From assembly GCA_963785755.1 (NCBI GenBank), contig CAWAXG010000075.1, positions 676,837 through 740,836 on the forward strand: a DNA stretch of 64,000 bases, read 5' to 3'. Both the position numbers and the translations under genes were made by a program. The first letter of the stretch is position 1. Every line of letters starts with the position of its first letter. Below, piece by piece: positions 871 to 62,676 of the stretch. This DNA is from an uncultured Acidobacteriota bacterium (lineage in GTDB: Bacteria; Acidobacteriota; Vicinamibacteria; Vicinamibacterales; 2-12-FULL-66-21). Below the pieces are notes generated by a model. The model saw nothing but the letters and a program-made list of their open reading frames with translations. It ran no database searches and was not told the DNA's origin.

Positions 871-966
871 GACAACTCCCAACTTCCAACCTCCAACTCC
901 CAAGGAGCTCAGAGCCGATCGACCAAGAGTTTTTTGGGAGTTGGAAGTTGGAGGTTGGAAGTTGAC
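871..966. repeat. Family A simple-word hairpin element, copy A1
   Basis: Left arm caactcccaacttccaacctccaactcccaa (873-903) and right arm ttgggagttggaagttggaggttggaagttg (934-964) are imperfect reverse complements around a ~30-nt loop. Ends in GTTGAC. Fills the SDR-FAH intergenic gap. Confidence 0.85.
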
Positions 967-1011
967 ACATTCATTTGCCTCTTCGCGAGCGCTCTCTCTC
1001 GAGGTGCGGAT

Positions 1012-1863
1012 ATGAAACTTCTCAGATACGGCCCCCCCGGACACGAGAAACCGGGGCTCCTCGATGCCGCGGGCGACATCCGCGATTTGTCCGGCGTGAT
1101 TCCCGACCTCGCCGGAGACGTGCTGCTGCCGGAGTCGTTCAAGCGTTTACGTCAGGTCGACGCCGCGACGCTCCCGCGAGTGGACGGCACGCCGCGCCTT
1201 GGTCCCTGCGTCGCCGGCGTCGGCAAGTTCATCTGCGTCGGGTTGAACTATTCCGACCACGCCGCAGAATCGGGCATGCCGGTTCCCTCGGAGCCGATCA
1301 TCTTCATGAAGGCGACCTCCTCGATCGTCGGACCGAACGACAATCTCGAGATTCCGAAGGGCTCCGGGAAGACGGACTGGGAAGTCGAGCTCGGAGTGGT
1401 CATCGGCAAGCCGGCGAAGTACATCGGGGAGACCAATGCGATGGACCACGTGGCCGGATTCTGCGTGGTGCACGACGTCTCGGAGCGCGCGTTCCAGCTC
1501 GAAGGCACGGGTCAGTGGGTCAAGGGGAAGAGCGCCGACACATTCGGACCGATCGGCCCGTGGCTTGTCACCCCCGACGAAGTGCCCGACTACCATGACC
1601 TCGACATGTGGCTCGAGGTGGACGGCCACCGCTATCAGCATGGCAATACCCGGACGATGGTGTTCGGCGTGCCGTATCTCGTCAGCTATCTGAGCCGGTT
1701 CATGAGCCTGCATCCGGGCGACATCATTTCGACCGGCACTCCGCCGGGAGTCGGCCATGGCTTGAAGCCACCCGTCTACCTCCGCGAGGGCAATGAAGTG
1801 CGCCTCGGGCTCGCCCGGCTCGGCGAACAGCGGCAGCGTGTCGTCGCGTACAGAGCTGACTGA
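1012..1863 (+). CDS. Fumarylacetoacetate hydrolase (FAH) family protein
   Basis: 283 aa from ATG 1012. The upstream part of ORF 622..1863 runs through element A1 and is not credible. FAH-fold strings VGLNYSDHA, EVELGVVIG, GDIISTGTPPGVG. Confidence 0.85.
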   Translation: MKLLRYGPPGHEKPGLLDAAGDIRDLSGVIPDLAGDVLLPESFKRLRQVDAATLPRVDGTPRLGPCVAGVGKFICVGLNYSDHAAESGMPVPSEPIIFMKATSSIVGPNDNLEIPKGSGKTDWEVELGVVIGKPAKYIGETNAMDHVAGFCVVHDVSERAFQLEGTGQWVKGKSADTFGPIGPWLVTPDEVPDYHDLDMWLEVDGHRYQHGNTRTMVFGVPYLVSYLSRFMSLHPGDIISTGTPPGVGHGLKPPVYLREGNEVRLGLARLGEQRQRVVAYRAD

Positions 1864-1902
1864 CGCCCCGCGGCGCCGGCTGACGCGAACGGTCGACACC
1901 TT

Positions 1903-3285
1903 ATGCCCCTTCCCGATTCCGCCGTCGGCGCGCTGACGGCAATCGTCGGCGCCGATTCAGTCCTCGTGAAGCCCGAGGACCTCGTGCCCTACAGCTTCGA
2001 CGGCACCGCGGCGCTCAAGCAGCGGCCCGAGGCGGTGGTCTTCCCGCGATCGACCGCACAGGTCGCCGAGTGCGTACGAACGGCCGGCGCGGCCCGCATT
2101 CCGATCGTCACCCGCGGCTCCGGAACAGGGCTGAGCGGCGGCAGCGTCCCGACACCCGGCAGCCTGGTGCTCTGTCTGGTGCACATGAACGCGATCCTCG
2201 ACGTGGATCCGCGCAACCTGACGTTGCGCGCGCAGCCCGGCGCGGTGACGCAGCGCATCGACGAAGCCGCCTCCCGCCATGGCCTCTTCTACCCGCCCGA
2301 TCCCGGATCGATGCGAATCAGCACGATTGGCGGCAATGTCGCGGAGAACTCGGGCGGACTCCGCGGCCTGAAATACGGCGTCACGCGCGACTACGTCATG
2401 GGTCTCGAAGTGGTGCTGCCGGATGGCCGGATCGCCCGCTTCGGGAACCAGTGCGTGAAGGATGTCGCCGGGTACTCGCTGAAAGACCTGTTCGTCGGCT
2501 CGGAAGGCACGCTCGGGATCATCACCGAGGTGCTGCTCAAGCTGGTGCCGCGTCCCGCGGCGAGGCGCACCATGCTCGCCCTCTACGATCGGATCGAAGA
2601 CGCCGCCGAGACGGTGTCCGCGATCGTCGCGGCACGCATCATTCCCTGCACGCTCGAGTTCCTCGACAACATGACGGCGGTGTGCGTCGAGGAGTACGCG
2701 CACGTCGGCCTGCCGACCGATTGCGCCGCCGTCCTGCTGATGGAAACCGACGGTCATCCGGCGGTCGTCGCGGACGAGGCCGCGCAGATGGAAGCGCTCG
2801 CCCGCGAGCACGGCGCGCGCGCGGTTCGCTCGGCGAAAGACGATGCCGAGGCGCTGCAGCTCGCGTCGGCGCGGCGCAACGCCTTCTCCGCGCTCGCGAG
2901 ACGACGGCCGACGACGATCCTCGAGGACGTCACGGTGCCGCGGAGCGAGCTCGCGACCATGGTCAGGTTCGTGGCGGAAACGGCCGCGGCCTTCGGACTG
3001 CAGATCGGCACGTTCGGTCATATGGGTGACGGCAACCTGCATCCGACATTCCTGGCCGACGAGCGGGATCAGGACGAGATGAACCGGGTTCACCAGGCGC
3101 TCGAAGCCATCGTCAAGCGCACGCTCGAGCTCGGCGGCACGATTACCGGTGAACACGGCGTGGGCCTGGCCAAGAAGCCGTGGATGCGGCAGCAATTCGG
3201 CGACGACAGCCTGGAGTTGATGCGCCAGATCAAACGGACGCTCGACCCGCATGGCCTGTTGAACCCGGGCAAGATGTTCGACTGA
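1903..3285 (+). CDS. FAD-linked oxidase, GlcD / D-lactate dehydrogenase family
   Basis: 460 aa. FAD-binding PCMH domain (RGSGTGLSGGS) and FAD-oxidase C-terminal domain (GEHGVGLAK). Confidence 0.85.
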   Translation: MPLPDSAVGALTAIVGADSVLVKPEDLVPYSFDGTAALKQRPEAVVFPRSTAQVAECVRTAGAARIPIVTRGSGTGLSGGSVPTPGSLVLCLVHMNAILDVDPRNLTLRAQPGAVTQRIDEAASRHGLFYPPDPGSMRISTIGGNVAENSGGLRGLKYGVTRDYVMGLEVVLPDGRIARFGNQCVKDVAGYSLKDLFVGSEGTLGIITEVLLKLVPRPAARRTMLALYDRIEDAAETVSAIVAARIIPCTLEFLDNMTAVCVEEYAHVGLPTDCAAVLLMETDGHPAVVADEAAQMEALAREHGARAVRSAKDDAEALQLASARRNAFSALARRRPTTILEDVTVPRSELATMVRFVAETAAAFGLQIGTFGHMGDGNLHPTFLADERDQDEMNRVHQALEAIVKRTLELGGTITGEHGVGLAKKPWMRQQFGDDSLELMRQIKRTLDPHGLLNPGKMFD

Positions 3286-3288
3286 TCC

Positions 3289-4599: not shown

Positions 4600-5337
4600 C
4601 CGCCCGCTGACGATCGCGCTACCGCGCTGCACGACGGCACGACGGCACGACGACGAGAGATCCTTGCAAAGATCCTTCGTGATCAGCGAGGACAGTCGAA
4701 TGCTGCCGGAATCCTGCGCGGCCGGACCGCGCCCGACGTCATGCCTCGGGAACAAGGCCAGCCACGGGATCAGCCACACCAGGCCGACCACCGCCGGAAT
4801 CAGGAACGCCATGCGCCAGCCGAGCGCCGACGCAATCAGCACGATCACGGGCGTCGCGACGGCCGACCCGAACTGGGCGCCGGCGTTGAACAACCCGCCG
4901 GCCGACGAACGGTTGCTCGAGGGGAACAAGCCGGCGATCGCCTTGATCCCGGCGGTGTAGTTGCCGCATTCGCTCACGCCCATCAGGAAGCGGAGCACCA
5001 CGAACCCGGCCAGGCCCGAGGCGAGCGCGTGCGCGCCGCCGACGATCGACCAGGCGACGAAGATCGCGGCCAGCCCCGCCCGCGTGCCGATCCGGTCGAT
5101 CAACGCTCCTACCGGCACCTGGCCCGCCATCATGCCGAGCTGGAAGGCCGCGGTAATGTAGGCGTACTCCGTCGCGGACAGCTGCATCGTCTCGCGCAGC
5201 ACCGGCGCGAGCACGGACAGCACCTGCCGGTCGATCAGATTGATGGCAATCGACGCCGACAGCAGCCCGACGATGGTCCAGCGCAGCCCGGACGAGACGG
5301 CCGGTTCGGCGCCGGCTGAAGCGTTCCCGGCCGTCAT
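4552..5337 (-). pseudogene. MFS transporter, N-terminal half only (truncated remnant)
   Basis: About the first 215 aa form a good six-TM MFS half (loop motif LIDRIGTR). After ...IRLSSLITKDL the similarity ends and the frame runs on into the 3' end of the convergent Fe-S gene. There is no room for TM7-12. Confidence 0.6.
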
Positions 5338-10162: not shown

Positions 10163-10208
10163 CGTCCTCCTCGAATTGGATCTATGAACCGCCGTCACCT
10201 TCGAATCG

Positions 10209-10272
10209 TGAACTCCGAACCATTTGAACACCGAACTCTTGAAGCCATGAACCTTGAACACCTTGAACCGAC
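10209..10272. repeat. Family B simple-word element, copy B1 (right arm only)
   Basis: Tandem TGAAC words (tgaactcc gaaccatt tgaacacc gaactct tgaagcca tgaacct tgaacacct tgaaccgac). Ends with the family terminus TGAACCGAC directly abutting the stop codon of the next gene. Confidence 0.75.
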
Positions 10273-11637
10273 TCAGACGGGACTCGCTTTCCGCGCCTTA
10301 GCGTCCCAAGTAAACGCCTTCCCCCCTGCCTTGATCGATTCGATCGCGAGCAGCGTCGGCAGGGTCGAGTTGAGGCCAATCGCGATATCCGCTGTTGGAC
10401 GCTCCCGCGAGCGCATGCAGTCGAGGAAGTTGCGGATATGCGCCGCCGTCGCGTCGACCATGCTTGAATCCGTGTCTCCGCCGCCTCCCGCGAAGCCGAC
10501 CTTCACGGCCTTGGCGAGCGGCTGCGGCGGGACCGGCGGCGCAGCCGTGGCTCCAGGAGCGGCTCCGGGTGCAGCGCCGCGGCCGCCGCGGCCGCCGCGC
10601 CCGGCAGGCGCTGGCCGCGGCCGCACCTCGTAGCCTTCGCGGTTGACGAGCATCAGCGCGCGATCGCCGTAGAAGTAATTGCCCCACCACGGCTCGTTGT
10701 TCGGGCCGAACAATGCCGCATTCGAGAGCGTCGCGACGAGGTTGTCGTAGCGCATCGTGACCACGTAGGTGTCCGGGACCCGCTCGGGGTTCACCGGCGT
10801 GCGGACGTACTGCGCCGCCGCCTGCACCACCTGCGGCGTCTTCTCGTCCATCTTCAGGTACCAGTTCATCACGTCGACGATATGGACGCCCCAGTCGGTG
10901 ATGTTGCCGCCGCCGTAGTCGTACCACCCGCGCCAGTTGAGACGCTGCTGCACGAATTGCTTCCGCGCGGCGGGCCCCTGGAACATCTCCCAGTTCAGCG
11001 TCGGCGGCGGATCCGTCGGCTGCGGCGGTGTCTGCTGCTGCCCTCCGCCGCCGCCACCTCCGGGCGGCGCCATGACTACGTGATTCGCGACGCCGATCCC
11101 GCCTTCCTGCACCAGCTTCGCGGCTTCCATGAAGAGCGGCCACGAGCGCTGCTGCAATCCGATCTGCACCACGCGGTTGTACTGCCGTGCCGCGTCGAGC
11201 ATCTTCAGCGCCGGATCGATCTGATTCGAGACCGGCTTTTCGCAGTACACGTCCTTCCCGGCGGCGCAGGCCTCGATGGTCATCGGACTGTGCCAGTGAT
11301 CCGGCGTCGCGATCAGGACCGCATCGATATCCTTCCGCTCGAGAATCTTCCTGTAGTCCTCGTAGGTATCGACTTTGTGCCCTGCCGACGCCAGCTTCGA
11401 CGCCGTGTTGTCGAGGCGATCCTTGGCGACGTCGCAGATCGCGGTGAAGACACTGTCCTTGTGCGACAGCCACGACTGCATGACCTGATTCCCGCGGCTG
11501 CCGGTGCCGATGATCGCCACACGGATGCGGTTGTTCGCTCCCTGCACACCGCCCTGTGCCGGCGCACCGCTGACCGCCCACGACCGCGACGACGCAACCG
11601 CCACGATGGCCGCTTCCAGGAATTGGCGTCTATCCAT
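10273..11637 (-). CDS. TAT-exported Gfo/Idh/MocA family oxidoreductase
   Basis: ATG 11637 preceded by AAGGAG. Twin-arginine signal MDRRQFLEAA. Rossmann IIGTGSRG. 454 aa with two Gly/Pro/Arg low-complexity insertions (GGGGGGGQQQTPPQP; AGRGGRGGRGAAPGAAPG). Confidence 0.85.
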   Translation of the reverse strand: MDRRQFLEAAIVAVASSRSWAVSGAPAQGGVQGANNRIRVAIIGTGSRGNQVMQSWLSHKDSVFTAICDVAKDRLDNTASKLASAGHKVDTYEDYRKILERKDIDAVLIATPDHWHSPMTIEACAAGKDVYCEKPVSNQIDPALKMLDAARQYNRVVQIGLQQRSWPLFMEAAKLVQEGGIGVANHVVMAPPGGGGGGGQQQTPPQPTDPPPTLNWEMFQGPAARKQFVQQRLNWRGWYDYGGGNITDWGVHIVDVMNWYLKMDEKTPQVVQAAAQYVRTPVNPERVPDTYVVTMRYDNLVATLSNAALFGPNNEPWWGNYFYGDRALMLVNREGYEVRPRPAPAGRGGRGGRGAAPGAAPGATAAPPVPPQPLAKAVKVGFAGGGGDTDSSMVDATAAHIRNFLDCMRSRERPTADIAIGLNSTLPTLLAIESIKAGGKAFTWDAKARKASPV

Positions 11638-11650
11638 TGTGATGCTCCTT

Positions 11651-11743
11651 GGCAACTCCCAACCTCCAACTCTCAACGCCCAAAGGCGCCGTGCGCCTTG
11701 GTTCGGATGCCTTGGGGGTGGAAGTTGGAAGTTGGTGGTTGAC
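11651..11743. repeat. Family A simple-word hairpin element, copy A2
   Basis: caactcccaacctccaactctcaacgcccaa ... ttgggggtggaagttggaagttggtggttgac. Fills the gap between the dehydrogenase stop (11755) and the Gfo start (11637). Confidence 0.85.
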
Positions 11744-11754
11744 GATATCCGTTT

Positions 11755-13467: not shown

Positions 13468-13498
13468 GATGGAGCGGGTGAATGCCACCCGCTCCATC
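13468..13498 (-). terminator. Candidate stem-loop terminator/attenuator after the TonB receptor gene
   Basis: Perfect 13-bp stem gatggagcgggtg / cacccgctccatc with a 5-nt loop, 35 nt downstream of the stop at 13533. Followed on the minus strand by only a weak U-tract (GGCUUUCC). Confidence 0.4.
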
Positions 13499-13532
13499 GC
13501 GAACGATCGTGCTCGACGCTAGTCGCGCACCA

Positions 13533-16500
13533 TCAGAACGAGAATCGGACCATCAGCTGCATCCTGCGCAGATCGAGAGCGCGGTTTGCCGCCCCGAATC
13601 CTGCGGTCCTCGGCGTCAGGCGCGCCGGATTGATCGATCCGTCCGGCAGCGTCTGCGGATTGGTGAGGGTCATGCTCGTCGGATTGTCGAAGCTGGCGTT
13701 CGTGCTGGCTTGGTCAAATATAACGGTGTTGAGCGCGTTGTACATGTCCAGCCGCACCTGCAGCGTGCGCTCGCCGCCCATGCGGATGTCCCGCGAGATC
13801 GCCAGGTCGAGGATCTTGGTGCTGCAGTCGCGCAGGATGTTCCGGCCCGATTCGAGGCCGACGCTGCCGAACTGCGGTCCCCTGACCACCGACACGTCGA
13901 ACTGGCGATACCGATCGTCCGAGCAACCGCTGCCGGGATCGCCGGTGAAGACCACCCGCGCATTGTAGTCCGGAGATCCGGTGAGGTTCGTCTGGTTGAT
14001 GCCGTTGTAGCTGAACCCGAGGTCGTAGGGCTCGCCCGAACCATACGTGAAAATGCCGGCCAGCCGCCAGTCGTTGAGGATGGCGCCGACGACATTGCCA
14101 AAGCTCTCGGGCACGGACGGCAACGCCCAGATCGCATTGGAGCTCACCCAGTGCGTCCGTCCGCCCAGCTCCTTGTTCAGCTCTTCGTACTCCGCCTGGT
14201 CGGCCCGGATGGAAATCGAGCCGTCGGCGTTGTGCGTTATCCGTTTCTGCAGGCCGGTGTTGCCGGTGAGCGCCAACTGGCCGGTGTAGTTCACGCTGTA
14301 CGAGAAGCCGTTCCGGAACCGCCGGTTCAGCGACGCCTGAATCGAGTGATAGGTGTCCTCGAAGTCGGTCGTGTTCTGGTTGATGTTGCCGAGGCCCGGA
14401 TACGGGCGGAGCAGGTTCGCGGACAGCGCGTTTGCGCCGGGAGTCGCGCTCGGTGTCGGGATGGTCGTGTTCTGATACTGCGACAGATACGCCGTGCCGA
14501 GGTCGATCGAGTTGAGGTTCACGGTCGTTCCGCCCTGGAACGTGCCCAGGCGGTTGTAGCCGTGGTTGCCGACATACGAGATGTCCATCGCCATCGACCA
14601 CGGCAGCACGCGCTGCATGCCGACGTTCCACTGCCAGGAAGACGGCACGTCCGCCTGGTACTGGAAGGTGACCAGCGAGGGAACCGGTGACGGGCTCAGC
14701 CCCGCTCCGAGCTGACTGAGCTGGCCGTTGCGGAGGTCCCGCGCCGTGGCGATCGGTGGATTGCCGGGAATGGAAAAGACGGTGTTCCCGTCAGGCCGAT
14801 CGTAGAAGAGCCCGCCGCCCGCGCGAAGCACCGTGCTCTGCGTGCCGGTCAGGTCGTACGCAACGCCGACTCTTGGCCCGACGATGAGCTTCGGCCAGGT
14901 ATAGCCGGTGTCGGCAATGCCGTCGCCGGCCTGGCGAATGCCGTTGAGCGGGTTTCCGGACCCGGGAATCGGCGTCGCGATCGCCGCCTGCGTGTTGAGC
15001 GTGCCCGGTGCCGTCAGAATCTGCCCGTTGCGCGGATCCATCGCATTCAGGGTGTTCCCTGAGCAGGTGACCGCGCCGTTGCTGCAACCCGGGATGTACA
15101 GCACCTGCTTCTGCGCGTTGTTCCAGAGCTCGGGGAAGAAGTTCGACATCTGCTGGAACTGGTCGTACTGCGGCCCCTGGCGGGTGAAGCGCATGCCGTA
15201 ATCGAGCGTCATGCGGTTGTTCACCTTCCAGTTGTCCTGGATGTAGAACTCGGTGTTGTCGTAGATCATGCTGCCCTCGACGAAGTTCGAGGCCTGCAGG
15301 TACTGCCTGAAGACGCCGGTCGCCGCGTTGGCATAGCCGAACCGCGTGTCGAGCGCGTTGTTCACGTCGTCGGCAAAGTCCACGAATCCCTGGAACGAGA
15401 GGTTGGCGATGCCACCGGCGCCGACGTTCTGCGCCTTGAAGCTGTGGTTGTTGTAGAAGCCGCCCTTGAACGTGTGCCGGCCCATGACCTTGGTCAAGCT
15501 GACGGCCACGTCCTGCGTGCGGTTGATGTTCAACCAGCCCGGATAACGCTGCTGCGGTGGCGCCGCGCCGATCCGTCCGCCCCAGCCGAACGTCGGCGGC
15601 AGGTTCAGATTCGCGCCATCCCAGAACGGCGGCTTGACGGCTTCCATGACTTCGAAGGCGTAGTAGCTCGGATTCACGTAGCCCGCGTCCTCATAGAGCG
15701 TCGGGAATCCCGGCATGCTGGTGAGGCGGTTGGACGCCTCGTTCATCAGGATGCCGTTCTCGTTGCCACCTGCCAGCTCGTTGCGGATGAACCCGTAAGT
15801 GCCTTCGAGGAAGGTCGTCGGGTTGATCGTCCAGTTGCCGGTGATCGCGTAGTTCGTCACGAAGGGATACGGCGTGTACGCGTCGCTGAAGCCGGGGATG
15901 ATGCCTGGCCTCGTGATCTTGCGTTCGCGCTGGCCCGAGTACTTGCCGGTGATGCGCCAGTTGGATGACAACTGGTAATCCAGGCGAATCGCCGGCTGCT
16001 GGATCAGGTTCTCGAACTGCGGCGCCGGAATCTCATAGTTCCAGTTGGTGGTCGGCGCCTGCTCCATGGTGGGCAGCGGGTAGCGGTTCAGCACCGCCAG
16101 GCCCGGCGTATAGAGACGGTCCTGTGGAATGCGGCCGAGAACACCACCGGCCTGGAAGCAACCGGCGGTATTCGTCGCCGTGCAGTCCAGTCCGCTCTGG
16201 TGGTCCCGAATCAGGTTGAACAGGTTGCCGTTCTGATCGCGCGTCTGCGAGAAGTCGCCGTTGCGCTCGGCCTGGGTCGGCACGCGCAGGCGAATCGGGT
16301 TGCCGTTGTTGATCGGGCTGTTCCGCGGACGGTACTCGTGCGCGTAGAAGAAGAACAGCTTGTTCTGCGCTCCCGGCTTGCCGATCGGGCCGCCGATCGA
16401 ATAGCCCCAGTCCTTTTCGTCGACGACCGGCTTGGGGTCTTTGTTCTCCTTGTTCACCCAGCTGTTCGAGTACCACTTGCTGTCCCGCTCGACGTCGTAG

Positions 16501-17265
16501 ACCGATCCGCGGAAGCGGTTCGTGCCGCTCTTGGTGACCGCGGTGACCTGCAGGCCGCTCGAACGGCCGAATTCAGCCTGGTAGCCCTGGGTGAGGATCT
16601 TCACTTCGCCGATGGACTCGGTGTTCATCGAGAGCATCTGCCCGTTGTTGCCGGTGTCCATCGCCGACGCGCCGTCCATCATGATGTTGTTCTGGCCGGC
16701 GCCGCCGAGACGCGTTGCGCCTGCCGCCCCTGACGTTCCGGCGCCGCCCTGCCCGCCCAGGATGACTCCGGGCGTGAACTGCACGGCGTTGATGAAGTTC
16801 TGCCGGTTGAACGGCAGGTTCTCGATCTGCACCTGCGCGACGGCGAACGACCGCTCCGCGCTCTGCGACTGCACGAGCAGCGATTCGGCGGTGACGTTCA
16901 CGGTTTCGGTGATCGCTCCGGTCTCGAGCGTGATCGCGGGGACGCCCACACGGTCGCCGCCGCTGACCTTGACGCCCGTCCGGCGCGAGGTCTTGAAGGA
17001 GTCCATCGAAACTTCGACGGTATAGATATCCGCGGTGACGTTCGGAAAGACGTAAACGCCAGCCTCATTGGTGACGACCGGTGCCAACTGCGTACCGCGT
17101 GACTCGCTGATGAGCACAACGGTCGCGCCGGGAATGACGCCACCCTGGGCGTCACTGACGGATCCACTGATGTTGCCCGTCGTAATCTGCGCTGAAGCAG
17201 TCGCAAAGCTCGCAAGCAGCGCGACAAGCGTGATTACGAGGACCAGAACCTCTCCTCACCTGCAT
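13533..17265 (-). CDS. TonB-dependent receptor with carboxypeptidase-regulatory-like N-terminal domain
   Basis: The 1194-aa ORF (13533..17117) carries a CarbopepD_reg-like domain (VTNEAGVYVFPNV...YTVEV), plug, large barrel and C-terminal ...LMVRFSF. Upstream, the in-frame signal h-region VLVLVITLVALLASFATASAQ has no start codon. ATG 17265 (GGAGG upstream, MQVRR) is one base out of frame, implying an indel near 17245-17253. Confidence 0.85.
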
Positions 17266-20086: not shown

Positions 20087-22601
20087 ATGTTCCCTCGCAC
20101 TCGCCGTCTGCTCGTGGTCATCGGCGTTCTGATCGGTCAGCCCGCGCTGCACGCCTGGTCCCCGTCACTGATGGGTGACCGCGTCGAGTGGGCTGCGGCC
20201 GGCGCGGCCCAGAGCTGCTCCTACAGTCTGTCCGCCACCAGTGCCTCAGTGTCTTCGACCGGAACCACCGCCGGCTCGCTGTCGGTCGTCACCGGCACCA
20301 ACTGTTCCTGGACCTCGGTCAGCCACGACGCGTGGATCACGGTGACAGGTGGCGCGAGCGGAACGGGAATCGGTCAAGTCGCGTACAGCGTCGCCGCGAA
20401 CACGACCGGCGGCCAGCGCGTCGGCACCATGACGATCGCCGGCATGACCTACACGGTGACCCAGAGCGCGACCGGCTGCACGGTCAACCTCTCCGCGACC
20501 AGCGCCTCGGTCCCCTCGACCGGCAGCACCGCGGGCGCGTTGTCCGTCGTCACGGGCACGAGCTGTTCATGGACGGCGGTCAGCAACGCCGCCTGGATCA
20601 CCGTCACGAACGGCGCCAGCGGAACGGGAATCGGTCAGGTCGCGTACACCGTTGCGGCGAACACGACCGGCAGCCAGCGCGTCGGCACCATGACCATCGC
20701 CGGGCAGACCTTCACGGTCACCCAGAGCGGAAGCAGTTGCACGTACAGCCTCTCGGCGACGAGCGCCGCCGTGCCTTCGACCGGCAGCTCCGCCGGCGCG
20801 TTGTCCATCGTCAGCGGCACCAGCTGTTCATGGACGGCGGTCAGCAACGCCGCCTGGATCACCGTCACGAACGGCGCGAGCGGATCCGGAATCGGTCAGG
20901 TCGCGTACACCGTCGCCGCGAACACGACCGGCAGTCAGCGCGTCGGCACCATGACCATCGCCGGGCAGACCTTCACGGTCACCCAGAGCGGAGCCAGTTG
21001 CACCTACAGCCTCTCGGCGACGAGCGCCGCCGTGCCTTCGACCGGCAGCACCGCCGGCGCGTTGTCCATCGTCAGCGGCACCAGCTGTTCATGGACGGCG
21101 GTCAGCAACGCCGCCTGGATCACGGTCACAACGGCGCGAGCGGATCCGGAATCGGTCAGGTCGCGTACACCGTGGCCGCGAACACGACGGGCAGTCAGCG
21201 CGTCGGCACCATGACGATCGCCGGGCAGACCTACACGGTCACCCAGGCCGCCGCCAGTTGCACCTACAGCCTCTCGGCAACGAGCGCCTCCGTGCCTTCG
21301 ACCGGCAGCACCGCCGGCGCGTTGTCCATCGTCACGGGCACGAGCTGTTATGGACGGCCGTCAGCAACGCCGCCTGGATCACGGTCACCAACGGCGCGAG
21401 CGGATCCGGAATCGGTCAGGTCGCGTACACCGTGGCCGCGAACACGACGGGCAGTCAGCGCGTCGGCACCATGACGATCGCCGGGCAGACCTACACGGTC
21501 ACCCAGGCCGCCGCCAGTTGCACCTACAGCCTCTCGGCAACGAGCGCCTCCGTGCCTTCGACCGGCAGCACCGCGGGATCGTTGTCCGTCGTCACGGGCA
21601 CGAGCTGTTCATGGACCGCCGTCAGCAACGCCGCCTGGATCACGGTCACCAACGGCGCGAGCGGATCCGGAATCGGTCAGGTCTCGTACACCGTCGCGGC
21701 GAACACGACCAGCAGCCAGCGAGTCGGGACCATGGCGGTCGCCGGAATTGGGTTCACCGTGACCCAGGCCGCCGCCAGCTGTTCGTACAGCCTCTCCGCA
21801 ACCAGCGCCTCCGTCCCGTCGACCGGCAGCACGGCCGGAGCGGCATCCGTCGTCACGGGCACGAGCTGTTTCTGGAACGCCTTCAGCAGCGCTGCGTGGA
21901 TCACGGTGACGAGCGGCGCGAGCGGAACGGGAATCGGTCAGGTCGCGTACAGCGTTGCGGCGAATACGACCGGCGGTCAGCGCATCGGCACGATGACGAT
22001 CGCGGGGATCACGTTCACCGTTACGCAGGCCGCCGCCAGCTGCACCTACAGCCTCTCGGCAACGAGCGCCTCCGTGCCCTCGACCGGCAGCACCGCGGGC
22101 GCGTTGTCCGTGGTCACGGGCACGAGCTGTTCATGGACAGCCGTCAGCAACGCCGGCTGGATCACGGTCACCAACGGCGCGAGCGGATCCGGAATCGGTC
22201 AGGTCGCGTACACCGTAGCGGCGAATACGACGAGCAGTCAGCGGGTCGGCACCATGACGATCGCCGGGCAGACCTTCACAGTCACCCAGAGTGGAAGCAG
22301 TTGCACGTATAGCCTCTCGGCGACGAGCGCCTCGGTGCCGTCGACCGGCAGCACCGCGGGCGCGCTGTCCGTCGTCACCGGCACGAGCTGTTCGTGGACC
22401 GCGGTCAGCAACGCCGCCTGGATCACGGTCACCAACGGCGCGAGCGGATCCGGAATCGGTCAGGTCGCGTACACCGTAGCGGCGAATACGACGAGCAGTC
22501 AGCGGGTCGGCACCATGACGATCGCCGGGCAGACCTTCACAGTCACCCAGGCCGGCTCGACAACACTCAGCGCGCCGACGGGCCTTCGCGTCGTCAAGTG
22601 A
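20087..22601 (+). pseudogene. Secreted protein of nine tandem BACON-like domains; two 1-nt deletions as assembled
   Basis: ATG 20087 gives signal MFPRTRRLLVVIGVLIGQPALHA. The repeat unit is ~87 aa: SC(T/S)YSLSATSA.VPSTGS.AG.LS.V.GTSCSWTAVSNAAWITVTNGASG.GIGQVAYTVAANTT.SQRVGTMTIAGQTFTVTQ. The frame changes at 21129 (caccaacgg read as cacaacgg) and 21349 (ctgttcatgg read as ctgttatgg), splitting it into ORFs 20000..21214, 20188..21474 and 21258..22601. Confidence 0.75.
20213..22550 (+). repeat. 9 x ~261-bp tandem coding repeat
   Basis: The period is visible directly (e.g. 20741 vs 21001). Runs of about 180 nt are identical between units (21131-21314 vs 21391-21574). Confidence 0.9.
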
Positions 22602-22625
22602 CACTTGGAGAGAGTGCTGACGCAT

Positions 22626-22644
22626 TGGAGGTTGGAAGTTAACG
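22626..22644. repeat. Family A half-element, copy A3 (solo G-rich arm)
   Basis: ttggaggttggaagttaac sits in the 43-bp convergent gap. No complementary CCAAC arm nearby. Confidence 0.5.
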
Positions 22645-23530
22645 CTACGCCAAACCAAAAAGCTTCAGCGCGTTCTCTTTGAGAATCAGCGGCCGCACTT
22701 CGTCTTTGATCGCGATCTTCTCGAAGTCCGCCAGCCATCGATCCGGCGTGATCCACGGATAGTCCGAGCCGAACAGCACCTTGTGCCTGAGCAGTGAGTT
22801 GGCGTATTGCACGAGCGCCGGCGGAAAGTACTTGGGCGACCACCCGGACAGATCGATGTAGACGGTCGGCTTGTGCAGGCAGATCGAAATGGCTTCGTCC
22901 TGCCATGGGAACGACGGGTGCGCCATGATGATTGGCAGCTCGGGAAAATCGACAGCCACGTCATCGATGGGCATCGGGTTTCCGGTACTTGAGACGAATG
23001 CCGGCGCCGCCGGGTACACCGGTGCCGATCCCGCTGTGCCCGGTATGAAACAGAACCGGAAGCTTCGCCTCGGCGAACACCTCGTAGAGCGGGTAGGCGA
23101 TCGGGTCGTTCGGGAAGAACTGCTGGGCGGGCGGATGCAGTTTGAGGCCGTGGACGAGACCCGTCGCAATCAGCCGCTTCGCCTCCCGAACGGCCTCAGG
23201 GCCGCGTGTGGGATCGAGGCTGACGAACGCCAGGGCGATGTCCGCGTTGTCCGCGGCGAAGCGGAGAACCTCGTCGTTCGAGACCTGCCGGCGGCCGGAA
23301 AGCCGCTCGTCCACTGTGAACACTACAAACGCGATCCGGCGCGAACGGTAGTACTCCGCGAGGGCCGCCGGATTTCGCGGGGCGCCGCTGTCCCCGAAGG
23401 ACTTGCGCGCCGCGGCGTCGGCCACCGAGGCCTCCTCGACCTCGAGGTGCACGTGCACGTCGAATCCAGCCAGCTGCGTTTGATCAATCCCGGAACGTCG
23501 TTCCACGTGACTGTTGTCCTTCCCCGACAT
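22645..23530 (-). pseudogene. Amidohydrolase_2 family (ACMSD/LigW-type) metal-dependent hydrolase/decarboxylase; one frameshift as assembled
   Basis: The N-half (FDVHVHLE...VLFHTGHSG...GIRLKY) is in ORF 22961..23560 and the C-half (GNPMPIDDVAVDFPELPIIMAHP...LFGSDYPW) in ORF 22645..23169. The junction is at taccggaaaccc near 22980-22986. Start is ATG 23530 or GTG 23506, overlapping the upstream gene end. Confidence 0.7.
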
Positions 23531-25318: not shown

Positions 25319-25554
25319 CGTCGGTTCAAATGTTCAAGGGTTCAGGAGTTCAGAGGTTCGGGTTCAGGGATTCAACAGTTCGGGTTCAACAGTTCGAGCG
25401 TTCAAGGTTCAGCGATCTCGCCGCTGATCTCTCGAATCTTGGACATCTGAACCTGAACCCCTGAACCCCGAAGCCTTGAACCTGAACATCTGACCCCCCG
25501 AACCCTTGAACCCGAACCTCTGAACCCTTGAACTCTTGAACCATTGAACCGACG
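25319..25554. repeat. Family B simple-word palindrome, copy B2
   Basis: CGTCGGTTCA + ~12 GTTCR words (25319-25411), a 34-nt loop, ~13 TGAAC words, then TGAACCGACG (25446-25554). The outer ~45 nt of the arms are well complementary. Fills the gap between the FadB-like stop (25569) and the ligase start (25304). Confidence 0.9.
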
Positions 25555-32627: not shown

Positions 32628-32797
32628 CGTCGGTTCAAAGGTTCAGGAGTTCAAGCGGTTCGGGTTCAGGGGTTCAGCGGTTCAAGGGTTCGACAGGGTT
32701 CAGAGGTTCAACCTCCCGCGCGAACTCTCGAACGACTGAACCTGAACCTCTGAACCCGAACCCGTGAACGCCTGAACTGCTGAACGCTTGAACCGAC
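32628..32797. repeat. Family B simple-word palindrome, copy B3
   Basis: CGTCGGTTCA + ~10 GTTCR words, loop cctcccgcgcgaactctcgaacgac, then TGAAC words ending TGAACCGAC. Fills the gap between the pcaF stop (32802) and the MetE-like start. Confidence 0.9.
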
Positions 32798-34030: not shown

Positions 34031-34296
34031 CGTCGGTTCAGTAGTTCAAGGGTTCAAGGGTTCACGGGTTCGGGTTCAGAGGTTCAAAGGTTCGATTCAG
34101 CGTTCAAAGGTTCAAAGGTTCGATGCGGTTGCTCGAGCGACCGCGCGCCAGCGAGCGCGGCTGAGTTCCAGTTGAACATTTGAACCACGGACGCCGAACC
34201 TGAACTCTTGAACCTTGGAACTCTTGAACTCTTGAACCTTGAACCTTGAACCCTTGAACCCTTGAACCCTTGAACCCCTGAACCTTTGAACCGACG
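34031..34296. repeat. Family B simple-word palindrome, copy B4 (largest)
   Basis: CGTCGGTTCA + ~11 GTTCR words (to ~34125), a 45-nt GC loop with its own small stem (ccgcgc...gcgcgg), then ~14 TGAAC words ending TGAACCGACG. Occupies most of the divergent region between pcaF (start 34013) and the cytochrome c gene (start 34347). Confidence 0.9.
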
Positions 34297-34346
34297 ACAA
34301 TCCAGCATCGTACAACCGCCCCGATTGTCTGTATCATCGAGTTGAA

Positions 34347-35465
34347 ATGAGCATCAGGATTCCCCACCGAATATGGCGTGCGGGCTCGCTCGTCGGACTG
34401 GCTCTGGTCACTCTGGTCTGGGCGTCCGGATTGGCGCAGGAAACGGCGAAGCCGGCGCAGGTGTCGACAGAGGATGCCCGCGGTCAGGAGACCTTCCTGC
34501 GGGTCTGTTTGAAGTGCCACCCGGCGGAACGCGTGACCGCCGAGGGGCGATCGCGCTCGCAATGGGAAAACACGATGATCGCGATGCAGACTTCGCGCGG
34601 CGCCGTGATCACACCGGAAGAGTTCGACATCGTCTTGAACTACCTGACGAAGTTTCACGGACGGGATGGCGCGCCAGCTCCGGGCGGAGCTGCGCCGGCG
34701 GCGGCCGGGCGTGGGCCGCGCGCGAACGTCGGCGCGGCGGACCGGCATCGTGTGGAACCAGCCGCTGCCGCGCGCGGCCAGAAGATCTACGCCGCCGAGT
34801 GCGTCACGTGTCACGGTGCGAGCGCGCGCGGAACCGAGCGCGGGCCGAACCTGATCCGATCGACCAGGGTCCTGCGCGACCGCTACGGCAGCGCGATTGG
34901 CCCGCTGCTCAAGCAGGGCCACCCCATGCAGACCGCGACGTCGAGCGCCAGCCTGACGACGGAGCAGATCACCGATCTCTCCCACTTCATCTGGGATCGC
35001 ATCAATAACACGCTGCGAGGATCCCCGGAGTTCGACGTCAAGAACGTCCTGAGCGGGGACCCAAAGGCCGGCGAGGCCTATTTCACGGGCGAAGGCCGCT
35101 GCAGCACGTGTCACTCGTCGACCGGCGACCTCGCGGGCTACGGCAAGCGCTATCAGCCGGTCGACATCCAGCAGCGCTTCGTCTTCCCGTTTGCGCTCGG
35201 TGGGCGCGGCCGGGGCGCAGGCCGACAGCAGGTCGTCGTCACGGTGACGATTCCCGGCCGGCCGCCGGTCTCGGGCGTCCTCGTCAGCATGGACGACTTC
35301 CACGTCGCGCTGCGCGATTCGGCCGGCGACTACAGGTCGTGGGCCCGCACGGACGACATGAAGATCGCGAGAAAAGACCCGTTCGCCGCGCACGTGGAGC
35401 TGCTCGACCGCCTCACGGACAAGACCATGCACGACGTCGTCGCTTATCTGGAGTCGTTGAAATGA
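34347..35465 (+). CDS. Exported tri-haem c-type cytochrome
   Basis: 372 aa. Signal peptide ...LVTLVWASGLAQE. Three CxxCH motifs (CLKCH, CVTCH, CSTCH). Directly upstream of a PQQ dehydrogenase. Confidence 0.8.
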   Translation: MSIRIPHRIWRAGSLVGLALVTLVWASGLAQETAKPAQVSTEDARGQETFLRVCLKCHPAERVTAEGRSRSQWENTMIAMQTSRGAVITPEEFDIVLNYLTKFHGRDGAPAPGGAAPAAAGRGPRANVGAADRHRVEPAAAARGQKIYAAECVTCHGASARGTERGPNLIRSTRVLRDRYGSAIGPLLKQGHPMQTATSSASLTTEQITDLSHFIWDRINNTLRGSPEFDVKNVLSGDPKAGEAYFTGEGRCSTCHSSTGDLAGYGKRYQPVDIQQRFVFPFALGGRGRGAGRQQVVVTVTIPGRPPVSGVLVSMDDFHVALRDSAGDYRSWARTDDMKIARKDPFAAHVELLDRLTDKTMHDVVAYLESLK

Positions 35466-35485
35466 GATGGAGCACTATGACTAAC

Positions 35486-35605
35486 GTCCTCAACTCCCAA
35501 CTCTCCAACTTCGCCCCGCCTCCGCGCAGCGCGATCGGCATCGACGCGTCGCCGGAGCGCGGCGGAGAATCGGCGAGTTGGGAGTTATCGCAGACTCTTG
35601 TTGAC
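35486..35605. repeat. Family A simple-word hairpin element, copy A4
   Basis: Left arm gtcctcaactcccaactctccaacttcgcc, a ~55-nt GC loop, and a short right arm ggcgagttgggagtt. A GTTGAC word at 35600-35605 overlaps the TTG start codons of the next gene. Confidence 0.7.
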
Positions 35606-37178: not shown

Positions 37179-37195
37179 TGACGATGACTGAAGAC

Positions 37196-37356
37196 GTCAA
37201 CTTCCAACTCCCAATCTCCAACTCCCAACTTCCAAAGCGAATGGCTCGTAGCATTGGGGTGAAAATCGCAGCGATCTACCCGATTGCACCGGCTTTCACC
37301 CAGGCGAGTTCCGGCGACTCGCTTTGGGAGTTGGAGATCGGGAGTTGGGAGTTGAC
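37196..37356. repeat. Family A simple-word hairpin element, copy A5
   Basis: gtcaacttccaactcccaatctccaactcccaacttccaaagcga (37196-37240), a 77-nt loop, then tcgctttgggagttggagatcgggagttgggagttgac (37318-37356). The arms differ by one hexamer unit. Ends 13 nt before ATG 37369. Confidence 0.9.
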
Positions 37357-37368
37357 GAGAGTGCACCT

Positions 37369-42039: not shown

Positions 42040-42170
42040 CTCTCTCCCCCCGGGGGACTTCGTCCCCCGGACCCCCTTACACGCTCGCTCGCGGGGGCCC
42101 CCATGCCCCGCTCCGCTCTCGTGGCTCGCTCGCTTCGCTCACTCGCGACCGTCCGCGAGTCAGTCGGGTG
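42040..42170. repeat. CTCGCT/GAGCGA-word spacer with short GC hairpins (element E)
   Basis: 9-bp stem ccgggggac/gtcccccgg with a 3-nt loop (42050-42070). Then acgctcgctcgcggg...ccgctccgctctcgtggctcgctcgcttcgctcactcgcg, with further small stems (actcgcg/cgcgagt). Lies between the esterase stop (42174) and the rhaI start (41993). Confidence 0.6.
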
Positions 42171-44693: not shown

Positions 44694-44895
44694 GCCACGT
44701 GCAACGTGCCACGGGCTACGTGCGCACGTGCTGTCGTGCCACGCTGCCACGTGCGCACGTGCATTTTGTGCGCACGTGCATTTTGTGCTCACGTGCTTAC
44801 GTGCTTGTGCTCACGTGCTTTGTGCCCGTCGCACGTAGCACGCAGGACGTAGCACGAAAAGCACGTGAGCACTCAGCGCGTGGCACGCGGCACGT
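44694..44895. repeat. Family C simple-word palindrome (ACGTGC / CACGTG words), copy C1
   Basis: About 15 GTGC-words at ~8-nt spacing (44694-44830), then an opposed GCAC-word arm (44831-44895) ending in TTTT on the plus strand. Fills the whole convergent gap 44694-44898. Confidence 0.85.
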
Positions 44896-54712: not shown

Positions 54713-54770
54713 AGCGCCGGCGACGCCCTGCCAGCGCGGGAGTCAGCCGCGAATGGTAGGATGCAACCTT

Positions 54771-54829
54771 GGGAATCGGGACTCGGGACTGGGGCTGGTC
54801 TCGGGATCGGGGATCAGGATCGGGGAATT
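54771..54829. repeat. GGGATC/GGGACT-word tandem spacer (element D)
   Basis: gggaatc gggactc gggactg gggctggtctc gggatc ggggatcag gatc ggggaatt. About 7-nt period, one orientation only. Lies 80 nt upstream of ATG 54908. Confidence 0.7.
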
Positions 54830-59522: not shown

Positions 59523-59524
59523 GA

Positions 59525-60976: not shown

Positions 60977-61127
60977 CTCGCTCAGCTCCCAACTCCCGAC
61001 TCCCAAGAAGCATCAGTCGAACGAGCTGGGTGGAATACGTGACAACGAGCTCTCCGAGTACGACTTTCACCCGGCGCTGTCGAACCTCGCGCGTTGGCAG
61101 TTGGGAGTTGGGAGTGTGGGAGTTGAC
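60972..61127. repeat. Family A simple-word hairpin element, copy A6
   Basis: gtcaactcgctcagctcccaactcccgactcccaa (60972-61006), an ~87-nt loop, then ttggcagttgggagttgggagtgtgggagttgac (61094-61127). Fills the boxB-ALDH gap. The terminal GTCAAC contains the probable TTG start on the minus strand. Confidence 0.85.
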
Positions 61128-61136
61128 GTCATGTCG

Positions 61137-62555
61137 TCAGGCCTCGGTCCTGACATACTCGAAGTCGAGCGGCAGCCGGTTGATGCCCCGCAAAGGCGGC
61201 GCGATGTAGTTTGCGAACTTCCCGGGCTCGTACACCGGCTCCGCCATGATGCTGAGGAGGTAGTCGCGGTCCGCCGCCGAAGGCAGCCATTCGTGCTTCC
61301 GCCGTTCCCAGTCCTCATCGGAGATCGGCGCCCCGTTGGGGTCGAAGTGCAGCGCCGAGAACATGCCGATCCCGCGGTTGAACTTGCGATCGGGCAATCG
61401 TACCCGTTCGGACATGCCGTGGCGTTCGAAGATCTTGTTCCACCGCTCGATGCCCGCCTGGCAGTCGCCGACGTACCAGTCGCGCAGCACCTCGTTCATC
61501 GCGGTGCGCATCGGGATCGCGCGGCGCGTGAGCGTGCCTTCGGCGGCAACCTCGAGCTCGTAGAACTTGTCGACGACCACGTGATCGTCCCACTTCTCTT
61601 CCTGCGCCCGGCCCTTCAGGCCGTTGGCGAAGTACGACGCGGCGTTGGTCGAGATCTCGTTGCCGTGCAGATCGAGCGACAGGCTGAACCACAGGTTGAT
61701 GAACTTCTGGATCGTCGGCAGGTCGATCCCGCCAAGCCGGCGCACGTCCTCCGAGAACCCGGCCTGCTTCATCAGCTGGCAGGTGCGCTCGATGATGCGC
61801 GCGACGCCGGTTTCACCGACGAACATGTGGTGCGCTTCCTCGGTGAGCATGAACCGCGTCGTCCGCGACAGCGGATCCAATGAACTCTCGGACAGCGACA
61901 ACAGCTGCGACTTGCCATCGCGATCGGTGAACATGGTGAACATGAAGAAGTCGAGCCAGTTGTCGATCGGCTCGTTGAACGCGTCGAGGATGCGCGGCTT
62001 GTCCCGGTTGCCGCTCTGCCGCGCCAGCAGCTCCTCGGCCTCGTCGCGGCCGTCGCGGCCGAAGTAGGAGTGCAGCAGGTAGACCATCGCCCAGAGGTGC
62101 CTTCCCTCCTCGACATTCACCTGGAACAGATTGCGCAGATCGTACAGGCTCGGGCAGCGCTGGCCGAGCCATCGCTGCTGCTCGACGCTCGCGGGCTCGG
62201 TGTCCCCCTGCGTCACGATCAGGCGCCGGAGCTGATTACGGAATTCCCCGGGCACCTCGTGCCACACCGGCTGGCCGGCGAAATCGCCGAACCCGATGCG
62301 CCGGTCGTGGACTGGATCGGCCAGAAAGATGCCCCACCGGTATTCGGGCAGCTTCACGTACTCGAAGTGCGCCCACCCCGAGGGATCGACGCTCACCGCG
62401 GTGCGGACGTAGACCTGGTGATAGTCCTGGAACCCCTGCGGTCCCATGTCGCGCCACCACTGGATATACGCGGGCTGCCAGTGCTCGAGCGCCCGCTGCA
62501 GCCGCTTGTTGCTCGACAGACCGACGTTGTTGGGAATCTTTTCGGCGGAAATCAT
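61137..62555 (-). CDS. boxB: Benzoyl-CoA 2,3-epoxidase (oxygenase) component B
   Basis: 472 aa. N-terminus MISAEKIPNNVGLSSNKRLQRALEHWQPAYIQWW is typical of BoxB. Di-iron ExxH motifs NVEEGRHLW and LTEEAHHMF. Confidence 0.85.
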   Translation of the reverse strand: MISAEKIPNNVGLSSNKRLQRALEHWQPAYIQWWRDMGPQGFQDYHQVYVRTAVSVDPSGWAHFEYVKLPEYRWGIFLADPVHDRRIGFGDFAGQPVWHEVPGEFRNQLRRLIVTQGDTEPASVEQQRWLGQRCPSLYDLRNLFQVNVEEGRHLWAMVYLLHSYFGRDGRDEAEELLARQSGNRDKPRILDAFNEPIDNWLDFFMFTMFTDRDGKSQLLSLSESSLDPLSRTTRFMLTEEAHHMFVGETGVARIIERTCQLMKQAGFSEDVRRLGGIDLPTIQKFINLWFSLSLDLHGNEISTNAASYFANGLKGRAQEEKWDDHVVVDKFYELEVAAEGTLTRRAIPMRTAMNEVLRDWYVGDCQAGIERWNKIFERHGMSERVRLPDRKFNRGIGMFSALHFDPNGAPISDEDWERRKHEWLPSAADRDYLLSIMAEPVYEPGKFANYIAPPLRGINRLPLDFEYVRTEA

Positions 62556-62556
62556 T

Positions 62557-62676
62557 CACGTGCTCCGTGCTACGTGCTGGGTGCGAACGTGCCTCGTGCT
62601 ACATGCACACGTGCGGACGTGCCGATCGTGCTACGGGCTACGTGCGGACGTGCTTTTGTGCTACGTGCTTCGTGCC
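62557..62676. repeat. Family C simple-word array, copy C2 (single orientation)
   Basis: About 13 GTGC words at ~8-nt spacing (cacgtgct ccgtgct acgtgctgg gtgcga acgtgcct cgtgct ...), directly abutting the boxB start codon. Followed by an 8-bp stem cttccggc/gccggaag (62693-62712). Confidence 0.8.

Follow-up and report, generated by a model that had tools for sequence, protein, structure and literature searches.

What kind of DNA can fill about half of the sizeable intergenic gaps in a common soil lineage is the question raised by a 64-kb stretch of an Acidobacteriota/Vicinamibacterales genome (hereafter the window), which is part of the 1.3-Mb metagenome contig ENA ERZ25039541 contig_25196 and has a G+C content of about 66%. 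Between its genes lie elements built of a short degenerate word repeated in tandem and, in most of them, followed by an opposed arm of the complementary word; a first-pass annotation sorted these elements into families A to E and counted them in about 13 of some 22 gaps. That count was about right, as our own gap list, in which obviously truncated gene starts were corrected by eye, places arrays in 13-14 of approximately 27-30 gaps of at least 40 bp. The explanation preferred here, on which our judgement stands evenly balanced, is that the elements belong to an insertional, selfish class of DNA whose arms are (usually inverted) tandem arrays of a 7-8-nt word. The copies in the window are most likely gene-less relatives of cassettes resembling the intervening sequences (IVS) of 23S rRNA, since genes of the family PF05635 were consistently found between such word arrays.

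Tandem Repeats Finder (TRF) recovered the arrays at the positions named in the first-pass annotation, with consensus words CAACTCC/TTGGAAG (period 7) for family A, GGTTCAAG/CCTGAACC (period 8) for family B, CACGTGC (period 7-8) for family C, and GGGACTC/GGGATCG (period 7) for family D. By element, A, C2, and D show a 7-nt period, B and a part of C1 an 8-nt one; the period of 6 first given to family A is therefore replaced by 7. Regular expressions for the A and B arms gave 2-4 matches each, all of them intergenic, vs. 0.00 expected from 100 dinucleotide shuffles of the window. A scan free of any chosen word, which records every 5-mer present at least four times within 50 nt, gave 140 raw matches vs. 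1.2 in shuffles. After merging there are 17 regions, and 14 lie outside called genes.

Four-helix-bundle genes between word arrays

The probe GTCGGTTCANNNGTTCANNNGTTCA, searched in 185,579 species genomes, returned 57 loci, of which 35 lie in nine metagenome-assembled genomes (MAGs) of Acidobacteriota/Vicinamibacterales type; the others are scattered single matches, some of them coding repeats. The partner arms of the acidobacterial loci, which were not used in the selection, mostly also begin GTCG|GTTCA, and no locus syntenic with the window was present among the 57 pattern-selected loci. In two relatives (L008 and L058), B arms that carry the end GTCGGTTCA and lie approximately 450-510 nt apart enclose a gene of 120-137 aa, which matches PF05635, "23S rRNA intervening sequence protein" (E 5e-17 and 9e-24, respectively), and also TIGR02436, "four helix bundle protein".

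Further homologues were chosen only by protein similarity, and their flanks were then read. In L139, L142, L143, and L145, (GGTTCA)n stands 100-200 nt ahead of the ATG and (TGAACC)n follows from the stop codon or just past it; the upstream and downstream arrays are (CGTTCGN)n and (NCGAACG)n in L146 and L148, and an 18-nt GGTTCC/GGTGCC unit and its complement in L149. The orthologues of XCC0516 (PDB 2GSC) in X. campestris and X. sacchari, located in the accB-accC gap, have GGGAATC-type heptamers upstream and their complement downstream. On plasmids, the corresponding pairs are GGGAAAA and TTTTCCC in Nostoc and Geminocystis, GGCAGAA and TTCTGCC in Stanieria, and GGTTCAAG and CTTGAACC in Riemerella. 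Each gene was scored by local alignment of its 260 nt upstream with the reverse-complemented 200 nt downstream. Every one of the 15 PF05635 genes scored at least 32, and 13 of them at least 45, vs. only 10 of 642 control genes (the other genes of the acidobacterial loci and the window) that reached 30; these ten are mostly genes between two complete hairpins. The 15 genes span four phyla (Acidobacteriota, Xanthomonas, three cyanobacteria, and Riemerella), and the location of the gene between inverted arrays was observed directly in 15 of 15 cases, which ties the word arrays to one small protein family across these phyla. No paper tying PF05635 genes generally to flanking tandem-word arrays was found in the literature searched. 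A wider proposal, tentative and in our view rather doubtful, is that PF05635 genes form one cross-phylum selfish cassette class, with inverted arms of a lineage-specific 7-8-nt word recognised by the encoded pentamer, of which the STRR (short tandemly repeated repetitive) sequences, the Xanthomonas repeats, the S23p-encoding IVS, and the Vicinamibacterales hairpins would all be members or gene-less offspring. The PF05635-array link that would unite the first three appears to be unreported.

According to the preferred reading, the family B elements of relatives that carry a PF05635/TIGR02436 (S23p, "Avd-like") gene between their arms would be the complete members of the class, and the gene-less copies of the window would relate to them as MITEs (miniature inverted-repeat transposable elements) do to full transposons. 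PF05635 is also related to Avd of diversity-generating retroelements (PMC10053308). Word type D, which is that of the published Xanthomonas repeats (PMC4692102), would join the class via Xanthomonas, where GGGAATC arrays flank the PF05635 gene, and families A and C are assigned to it by architecture alone. Changes within the arrays could arise through replication slippage. In operon transcripts that contain an element, the two arms would pair as a long double-stranded RNA stem, which RNase III could reasonably be expected to cut, as in the 23S IVS (PMC4990558); such a cut would separate the adjacent cistrons and leave the stem halves at the RNA ends. Multi-site protein binding by the word arrays is plausible as well, and the candidate binder is the four-helix-bundle protein encoded within the gene-bearing copies, for which, as a pentamer, the words may be binding sites.

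Other features of these cassettes and their hosts were also recorded. In L142, L143, L145, L146, L148, and L149, the TGA stop codon of the PF05635 gene doubles as the opening three bases of the right arm's first TGAACC/TGAACG word. A sigma-54-like motif, TGGCAC-N5-TTGCW, lies 10-15 nt upstream of the ATG in most of the nine acidobacterial PF05635 genes (e.g., TGGCATTGGCCTTGCT in L008 and TGGCACTCGGCGTGCT in L143, with TTGA as the -12 element in L146 and L148). The motif suggests RpoN-dependent and nearly leaderless transcripts, in which case the word array would occupy the usual binding region of enhancer-binding proteins. The Riemerella anatipestifer plasmid (L158, NZ_CP081938.1; Bacteroidota) carries its four-helix-bundle gene at 100318-100734, flanked by GGTTCAAG/GGTTTAAG and CTTGAACC/CTTAAACC arrays, that is, by the family B word of the window with its 66% G+C. 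B-type arms can also have other contents: small secreted proteins without a Pfam match in L032 (4850-5364) and L003 (1783-2345), and 2.5 kb with several long open reading frames (ORFs) in L056 (1744-4315). The MAG "MFD02360.bin.2.184" (L002, L006, L009, and 12 more loci) is titled "uncultured cyanobacterium", and its loci have approximately 65% G+C and B elements like those of the Acidobacteriota MAGs; judging from these sequences, the label may be wrong.

Turnover, placement, and make-up of the elements

Orthologous gaps were compared through a scan for the pyrroloquinoline quinone (PQQ)-dehydrogenase gene, which gave 80 loci of 52-88% protein identity, and the gap between this gene and the TIM-barrel gene, equivalent to that of A4 in the window, was read in relatives. 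In L082 (88%) it holds an orthologous A-type hairpin with ends of the A4 type (CGTCAACTTCCAAC...AGTTGAC), a different number of words, and a loop of about 35 nt vs. 88 nt. Elsewhere the occupant is an ACGTGCT hairpin (L061, 85%), a CACGACG hairpin (L062, 85%), a CCAGTTT hairpin (L066, 82%), a degenerate CCAA hairpin (L065, 83%), three CTCCTAG words (L060, 86%), or a plain palindrome (L064, 84%), and L063 (85%) lacks an array. Over 3.8 kb, L062 matches L063 at 99.5% identity, and past the gap the two are again identical; the gap itself consists of 300 nt with a hairpin in the former vs. 114 unrelated, plain nt in the latter. Between L067 and L069, which share 99% identity, a 93-nt indel is edged by direct CCAGCTT words; together with the difference in word number and loop between A4 and L082, this indel bears out the expectation that the arrays grow and shrink. 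These comparisons indicate that new sites acquire elements, that one element can take the place of another, and that copies are reshaped internally.

On sequence comparison, A3 is a clear insertion into a gene junction. In most of 20 relatives the stop codon of the cytochrome c gene overlaps the start of the dehydrogenase gene (4-nt ATGA) with no spacer, and L067 and L069 have a GCTTCCA word array at the equivalent junction. In the window (region 35462-35600), an insert of 122 nt, a length that is not a multiple of 3, separates codons 2 and 3 (AGA|AGA), and the ancestral ATG-AGA is cut off from the remaining signal peptide of the PQQ-dehydrogenase. Because of this frame shift the gene must now begin at TTG 35598, the only in-frame start remaining, with loss of the Arg-Arg n-region. 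The GTTGAC previously taken as an end of A3 is host signal-peptide sequence.

Long single hairpins are formed by nine elements (A1-A5, B1-B3, and C1), with folding energies from -51 to -150 kcal/mol and z-scores from -4.7 to -13 relative to shuffles, and the folds of B4, C2, and D are no better than those of shuffles (Table 1). The opposed arms described earlier are thus present in the nine hairpins but missing from five arrays, of which B4, C2, D, and the short A arm at 22620-22644 are solo. Element E, originally grouped with the other word hairpins, is a different object composed of G/C hairpins plus CTCGCT words. Small G/C-rich hairpins with CGCTC/CTCGCT words are found both there, at 42040-42150, and in the relative L064 (18313-18385), and may represent a separate repeat family. 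Polarity is constant within each family: on either strand, family B reads 5'-(GGTTCA)n...(TGAACC)n-3', with the G-rich arm first, and family A reads 5'-(CCAACTC)n...(GAGTTGG)n-3' throughout, with the C-rich arm first. Within an element, neither arm is an exact inverted copy of the other. In normalised alignments of left arms with right arms, an element's own right arm scores no better than that of another copy (own vs. cross-copy, 0.69 vs. 0.63 for A and 0.57 vs. 0.58 for B), in agreement with the non-colinear interiors noted in the first-pass annotation and with stems that can pair in many registers. The conserved thing is the word, not a given pairing register.

The elements sit closely between gene boundaries, B1 and B2 extending from a few nt past a stop codon to 10-20 nt ahead of the next start, and the occupied gaps include a divergent one (B3) and a convergent one (C1). 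Among 29 related loci, which were chosen for carrying arrays so that only relative occupancy figures are meaningful, the share of gaps of at least 60 bp with an array is 43% for co-directional, 34% for divergent, and 55% for convergent ones. The near-exclusive placement between co-directional genes proposed at first is therefore a base-rate effect, co-directional gaps being simply common. The non-coding 17% of 864 kb of related loci holds 146 of 228 array regions. The view that one architecture is shared by several word families proved correct, and the relatives supply further words, such as TCAGCTA, CACGACG, CCAGTTT, GGGCT, GGTTCC, and others. L032 holds both TCAGCTA/TAGCTGA and GGTTCACG, GGTTCC words occur in L009 and L022, GGGCT in L028, and CCAGTTT-type arrays in L066, and L061 has three ACGTGCT hairpins within 13 kb. 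Such lineage-specific word sets are as expected from bursts.

Table 1. Word elements of the window. Energies (dG) are in kcal/mol and z-scores relative to shuffles; signs in brackets are the strands of the flanking genes.
Element	Position	TRF array	Words and ends	Fold	Neighbours and placement
A1	871..966	873-903/934-964	left arm (CAACTYC)x4, right arm (GRAGTTG)x4	hairpin, dG -57.6, z -8.6	short-chain dehydrogenase/reductase (SDR) gene and fumarylacetoacetate (FAA)-hydrolase gene (+,+), by Pfam
B4	10185..10272		solo (TGAAC)n arm, end TGAACCGAC; no opposed arm within 6 kb	z +1.7	adjoins stop codon of minus-strand gene beginning at 10273
A2	11650..11745	11653-11683/11719-11735	CCAACYC / GGWRGTTGG, right end GGTTGACG	hairpin, dG -50.8, z -4.7	two dehydrogenase genes, both minus strand
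A-type arm	22620..22644		short solo right arm TTGGAGGTTGGAAGTTAAC; weak, 2-3 words, read from sequence		43-bp convergent gap
B1	25319..25553	25323-25550	(GGTTCA+1-3 nt)x~11 then (TGAACC)x~12; ends CGTCGGTTCA...TGAACCGACG	dG -124, z -13.0	fills gap from 3-hydroxyacyl-CoA dehydrogenase stop to acyl-CoA synthetase start (-,-)
B2	32629..32797	32632-32794	words and ends of B1	hairpin, dG -101, z -8.9	5 nt past thiolase stop codon, 11 nt ahead of next start codon (-,-)
B3	34032..34297	34035-34292	words and ends of B1	hairpin, dG -150, z -12.4	divergent (promoter) gap, thiolase / cytochrome c genes
A3	35468..35589 (core 35488-35589)		122-nt insertion with CCAACTC/GAGTTGG	hairpin, dG -62, z -5.6	between codons 2 and 3 of PQQ-dehydrogenase gene
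A4	37195..37360	37198-37235/37324-37354	ends CGTCAACTTCC...GGGAGTTGACG, 88-nt paired loop	hairpin, dG -97.7, z -9.2	PQQ-dehydrogenase and TIM-barrel genes (+,+); orthologous A-type copy in L082
E	42040..42150		small G/C-rich hairpins (CCCCCGGGGGACTTCGTCCCCCGG) and CTCGCT words; doubtful member	z -3.3	
C1	44694..44898	44695-44895	(ACGTGC+1-3 nt)x~14 then (GCACG)x~8	hairpin, dG -129, z -7.9	convergent gap
D	54770..54826	54771-54826	solo array of GGGAATC/GGGACTC/GGGGATC heptamers	z -0.1	
A5	60985..61130	61093-61125	right end GGGAGTTGACG	hairpin, dG -76.5, z -5.6	right end 2-3 nt from stop of upstream minus-strand gene; left arm overlaps first codons of aldehyde dehydrogenase ORF if start is TTG 61006
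C2	62556..62680	62558-62675	solo (ACGTGC/CGTGCT)x~16 array, without opposed arm	z -1.0	

The genes around these elements are those of ordinary catabolism, encoding thiolase, 3-hydroxyacyl-CoA dehydrogenase, acyl-CoA synthetase, and PQQ dehydrogenase with cytochrome c, as well as rhamnose isomerase and aldehyde dehydrogenase. A minus-strand ORF of 1,195 aa at 13533-17117 is presumably a TonB-type receptor. Just downstream of its stop (13533), at 13470-13500, lies a plain hairpin free of words, GATGGAGCGGGTG-aatg-CCACCCGCTCCATC, which indicates that not all structured gaps in the window are word elements. The Rfam search recommended in the first-pass annotation was run on the 64-kb window at the gathering threshold and matched no family, rRNA included, and a tRNA/tmRNA search of the window found none. 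A 261-bp unit repeated nine times with 88% identity (20216-22554, TRF score 3242) covers two neighbouring plus-strand ORFs (20114-21214 and 21258-22601), which are probably parts of a single large protein built from repeated 87-aa domains; an assembly or frameshift error may have divided it. Likewise, the minus-strand Amidohydro_2 (PF04909) gene at 22645-23458 is broken into two ORFs that overlap and cover positions 3-157 and 156-289 of the profile; the break is a frameshift, which marks either a pseudogene or a sequencing error.

Competing explanations

The tight fit of the elements between stop and start codons and the very stable stems could mean that they are regulatory elements selected by the host, either multi-site binding platforms or hairpins that terminate transcription or stabilise mRNA, as proposed for repetitive extragenic palindromic (REP) and STRR sequences; for the latter, transcript stability or translational coupling has been put forward (PMC2670836). 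Retention of the word rather than the register fits a sequence-specific binder, and the presence of elements in all gap types, including divergent promoter gaps, fits DNA binding. However, an orthologous gap may hold another family or none at all, even in strains of 99.5% identity, so that no given gap needs a given element, and A3 damages a gene start. The tests of an RNA role do not favour host selection either: of 26 co-directional hairpins, 13 fold better on the sense strand and 13 worse (Wilcoxon p = 0.93), and their G:U pairs (97 vs. 79) show no sense-strand excess over A:C, and hence no sign of selection on the sense RNA. Intrinsic terminators are ruled out by the stem length (30-120 nt), by the lack of a consistent T-run at the 3' end, and by the copies in divergent gaps. 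Host regulation thus appears an improbable origin of the elements.

Repeats could also be a mutational by-product, in which heptamers or octamers grow in place by polymerase slippage and acquire inverted partners by local template switching, with no mobility, gene link, or function. Many of the observations agree with such a process, including the many unrelated words across loci and genomes, the common solo arrays, the indels edged by direct words, the orthologous A4 and L082 copies that differ only in their interior, the equal own-arm and cross-arm complementarity, the unrelated loops, and the lack of target-site duplications. We nevertheless consider it unlikely, as slippage would hardly yield the same word and GTCG end at dozens of loci in several genomes, even in Bacteroidota, nor the fixed polarity within a family; A3 arose at a junction with no spacer to grow from, and the embedding of 15 of 15 PF05635 genes vs. 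10 of 642 controls would be unexpected. Conventional small mobile elements, either MITEs moved by a DDE transposase or hairpins of the REP/REPIN (paired REP) type moved by a REP-associated tyrosine transposase (RAYT) that recognises a CGTC-like end, are very improbable. The elements have inverted ends and are abundant and intergenic; the window B copies begin CGTCGG and most A copies (A2, A4, and A5) have CGTCAAC, recalling the CGTC tag (PMC3733652). Set against this are the lack of target-site duplications and of a conserved core, the lack of a transposase or RAYT gene among the window genes scanned, the B end in relatives, which is only GTCG or is absent, and the CGTC REPs themselves, each a single stem of 8-9 bp that follows a defined consensus. 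MITEs lack support on the first of these points, as read at B1-B3 and A3, and because the only gene-bearing copies carry PF05635 or small secreted proteins and no transposase.

A number of results also weigh against the preferred reading of the elements as a selfish class related to PF05635 cassettes. With a PF05635 profile built from 106 homologues, no match was found among the six-frame ORFs of the window, nor, beyond L008 and L058, in the other approximately 1.2 Mb of fetched relatives, so that gene-less copies outnumber gene-bearing ones by more than 20:1. Gene-bearing copies of families A and C were absent from the DNA of the window and the fetched relatives, and the C-rich-first polarity of family A is opposite to that of all 15 cassettes. 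No RAYT or other transposase was seen among the window genes scanned, and B1-B3 and A3 show no target-site duplication beyond an ambiguous CG or AGA. In Coxiella, the S23p protein may not be produced at all (PMC4990558). Loops compared between copies share no homology beyond chance, and the 14-mers shared among 58 loci are only array words and one coding repeat. Many arrays are solo (33, vs. 44 paired, in the window and relatives together), and distant partners within 6 kb, apart from arms of adjacent elements, were found only for L056. The A and B arm alignments reveal no co-evolution of an element's two arms, and with equal own and cross complementarity and no G:U excess, nothing shows selection on an RNA stem.

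Comparison with known systems

Knowledge of intergenic tandem heptamers of the STRR type goes back to about 1990, and that of 23S intervening sequences more than 25 years. To our knowledge, neither has an agreed origin or function. In filamentous cyanobacteria, STRR are hairpin-forming 7-bp tandem repeats in intergenic positions such as the hupS-hupL gap, for which roles in transcript stability or translational coupling were suggested (PMC2670836). The likeness to the elements described here lies in the tandem units of approximately 7 nt, the several words per genome, the intergenic location (14 of 17 regions in the window), and the inverted hairpin pairs (nine in the window). The hosts differ, being Acidobacteriota/Vicinamibacterales and not heterocystous cyanobacteria, and the STRR genomes are AT-rich with other words. 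Within the cyanobacteria, inverted heptamer arrays also flank the PF05635 genes on the plasmids of Nostoc, Geminocystis, and Stanieria.

Of the 186 GGGAATC arrays described in Xanthomonas campestris, 89% are intergenic; convergent inverted pairs that could form stem-loops number 70 there and 75 in X. axonopodis pv. citri (PMC4692102). Both these arrays and the GGGGAYT heptamers of Nostoc, which were studied as G-quadruplex formers, are 89-93% intergenic, mostly between co-directional ORFs, and vary in length among close species (PMC4692102, Rehm et al. 2015); the view that such repeats grow by slippage because 7 nt match the footprint of the polymerase is credited there to Mrazek 2007 (via PMC4692102). 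The window shares with them the degenerate tandem heptamers, and element D uses the same GGGNATC word. In the present analysis the Xanthomonas arrays flank the XCC0516-type PF05635 gene, of which PMC4692102 makes no mention. The difference is one of phylum and of diversity, with one dominant word per genome in Xanthomonas vs. several here. The TAACTGA heptamers of Beggiatoaceae are likewise intergenic, lie near start codons, and are patchy across phyla, but they are nearly always direct, with one inverted case in 170 sets (PMC4679880), and form no hairpins. With STRR and the Xanthomonas GGGAATC and Nostoc GGGGAYT arrays in print (PMC2670836, PMC4692102), the first-pass opinion that the elements do not correspond to a described class is not borne out.

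The separation from REP sequences and bacterial interspersed mosaic elements (BIMEs), on the other hand, was well founded. REP, BIME, and REPIN elements are abundant intergenic palindromes, often paired, with proposed roles in mRNA stability or termination, and they resemble the window elements in this respect. However, CGTC and GTAG REPs have a defined consensus of 20-40 nt and a single stem of 8-9 bp, the GTAG REPs being tied to RAYT genes (PMC3733652), which rules out membership of the window elements, whose arms of 30-120 nt consist of tandem words in variable number and order. MITEs are comparable in that gene-less copies far outnumber gene-bearing ones. Long terminal inverted repeats made of tandem subrepeats in variable number are found in Foldback/Galileo elements (PMC3573991); these are eukaryotic, so the likeness of their long inverted arms to the window elements is architectural only.

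Hairpins without an ORF exist among the IVS too, e.g., in Salmonella. IVS with an S23p ORF are found in Coxiella, Leptospira, and Brucella at helix 25 or 45 of 23S rRNA, and that of Coxiella is described as a 428-nt selfish element with the S23p ORF inside, terminal inverted repeats that form a 28-bp stem, an RNase III cut mapped by rapid amplification of cDNA ends, and, in the 5' arm, two to three tandem GACAGAT heptamers whose number depends on the strain (PMC4990558). The window copies have the same long stem of terminal inverted repeats, and the gene-bearing B elements of relatives (L008, L058, L139, L142, L143, and L145) share the layout, with a PF05635 ORF between the arms. As the window copies lack this ORF, they could only be ORF-less derivatives. 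They further differ in lying between protein-coding genes rather than in 23S rRNA, in arms made up of 30-120 nt of tandem words where the Coxiella IVS has a 28-bp stem, and in RNase III cutting, which was demonstrated for the IVS and would apply here by analogy.

Word arrays will also affect operon prediction and soil metagenome assembly, and since they overlap gene starts in A3, A5, and Xanthomonas, the calling of gene starts will be confused. Given the published precedents, the class is not categorically new; what is new in comparison with the known systems is the other phylum, the unusually high occupancy of gaps, and the presence of several word families side by side.

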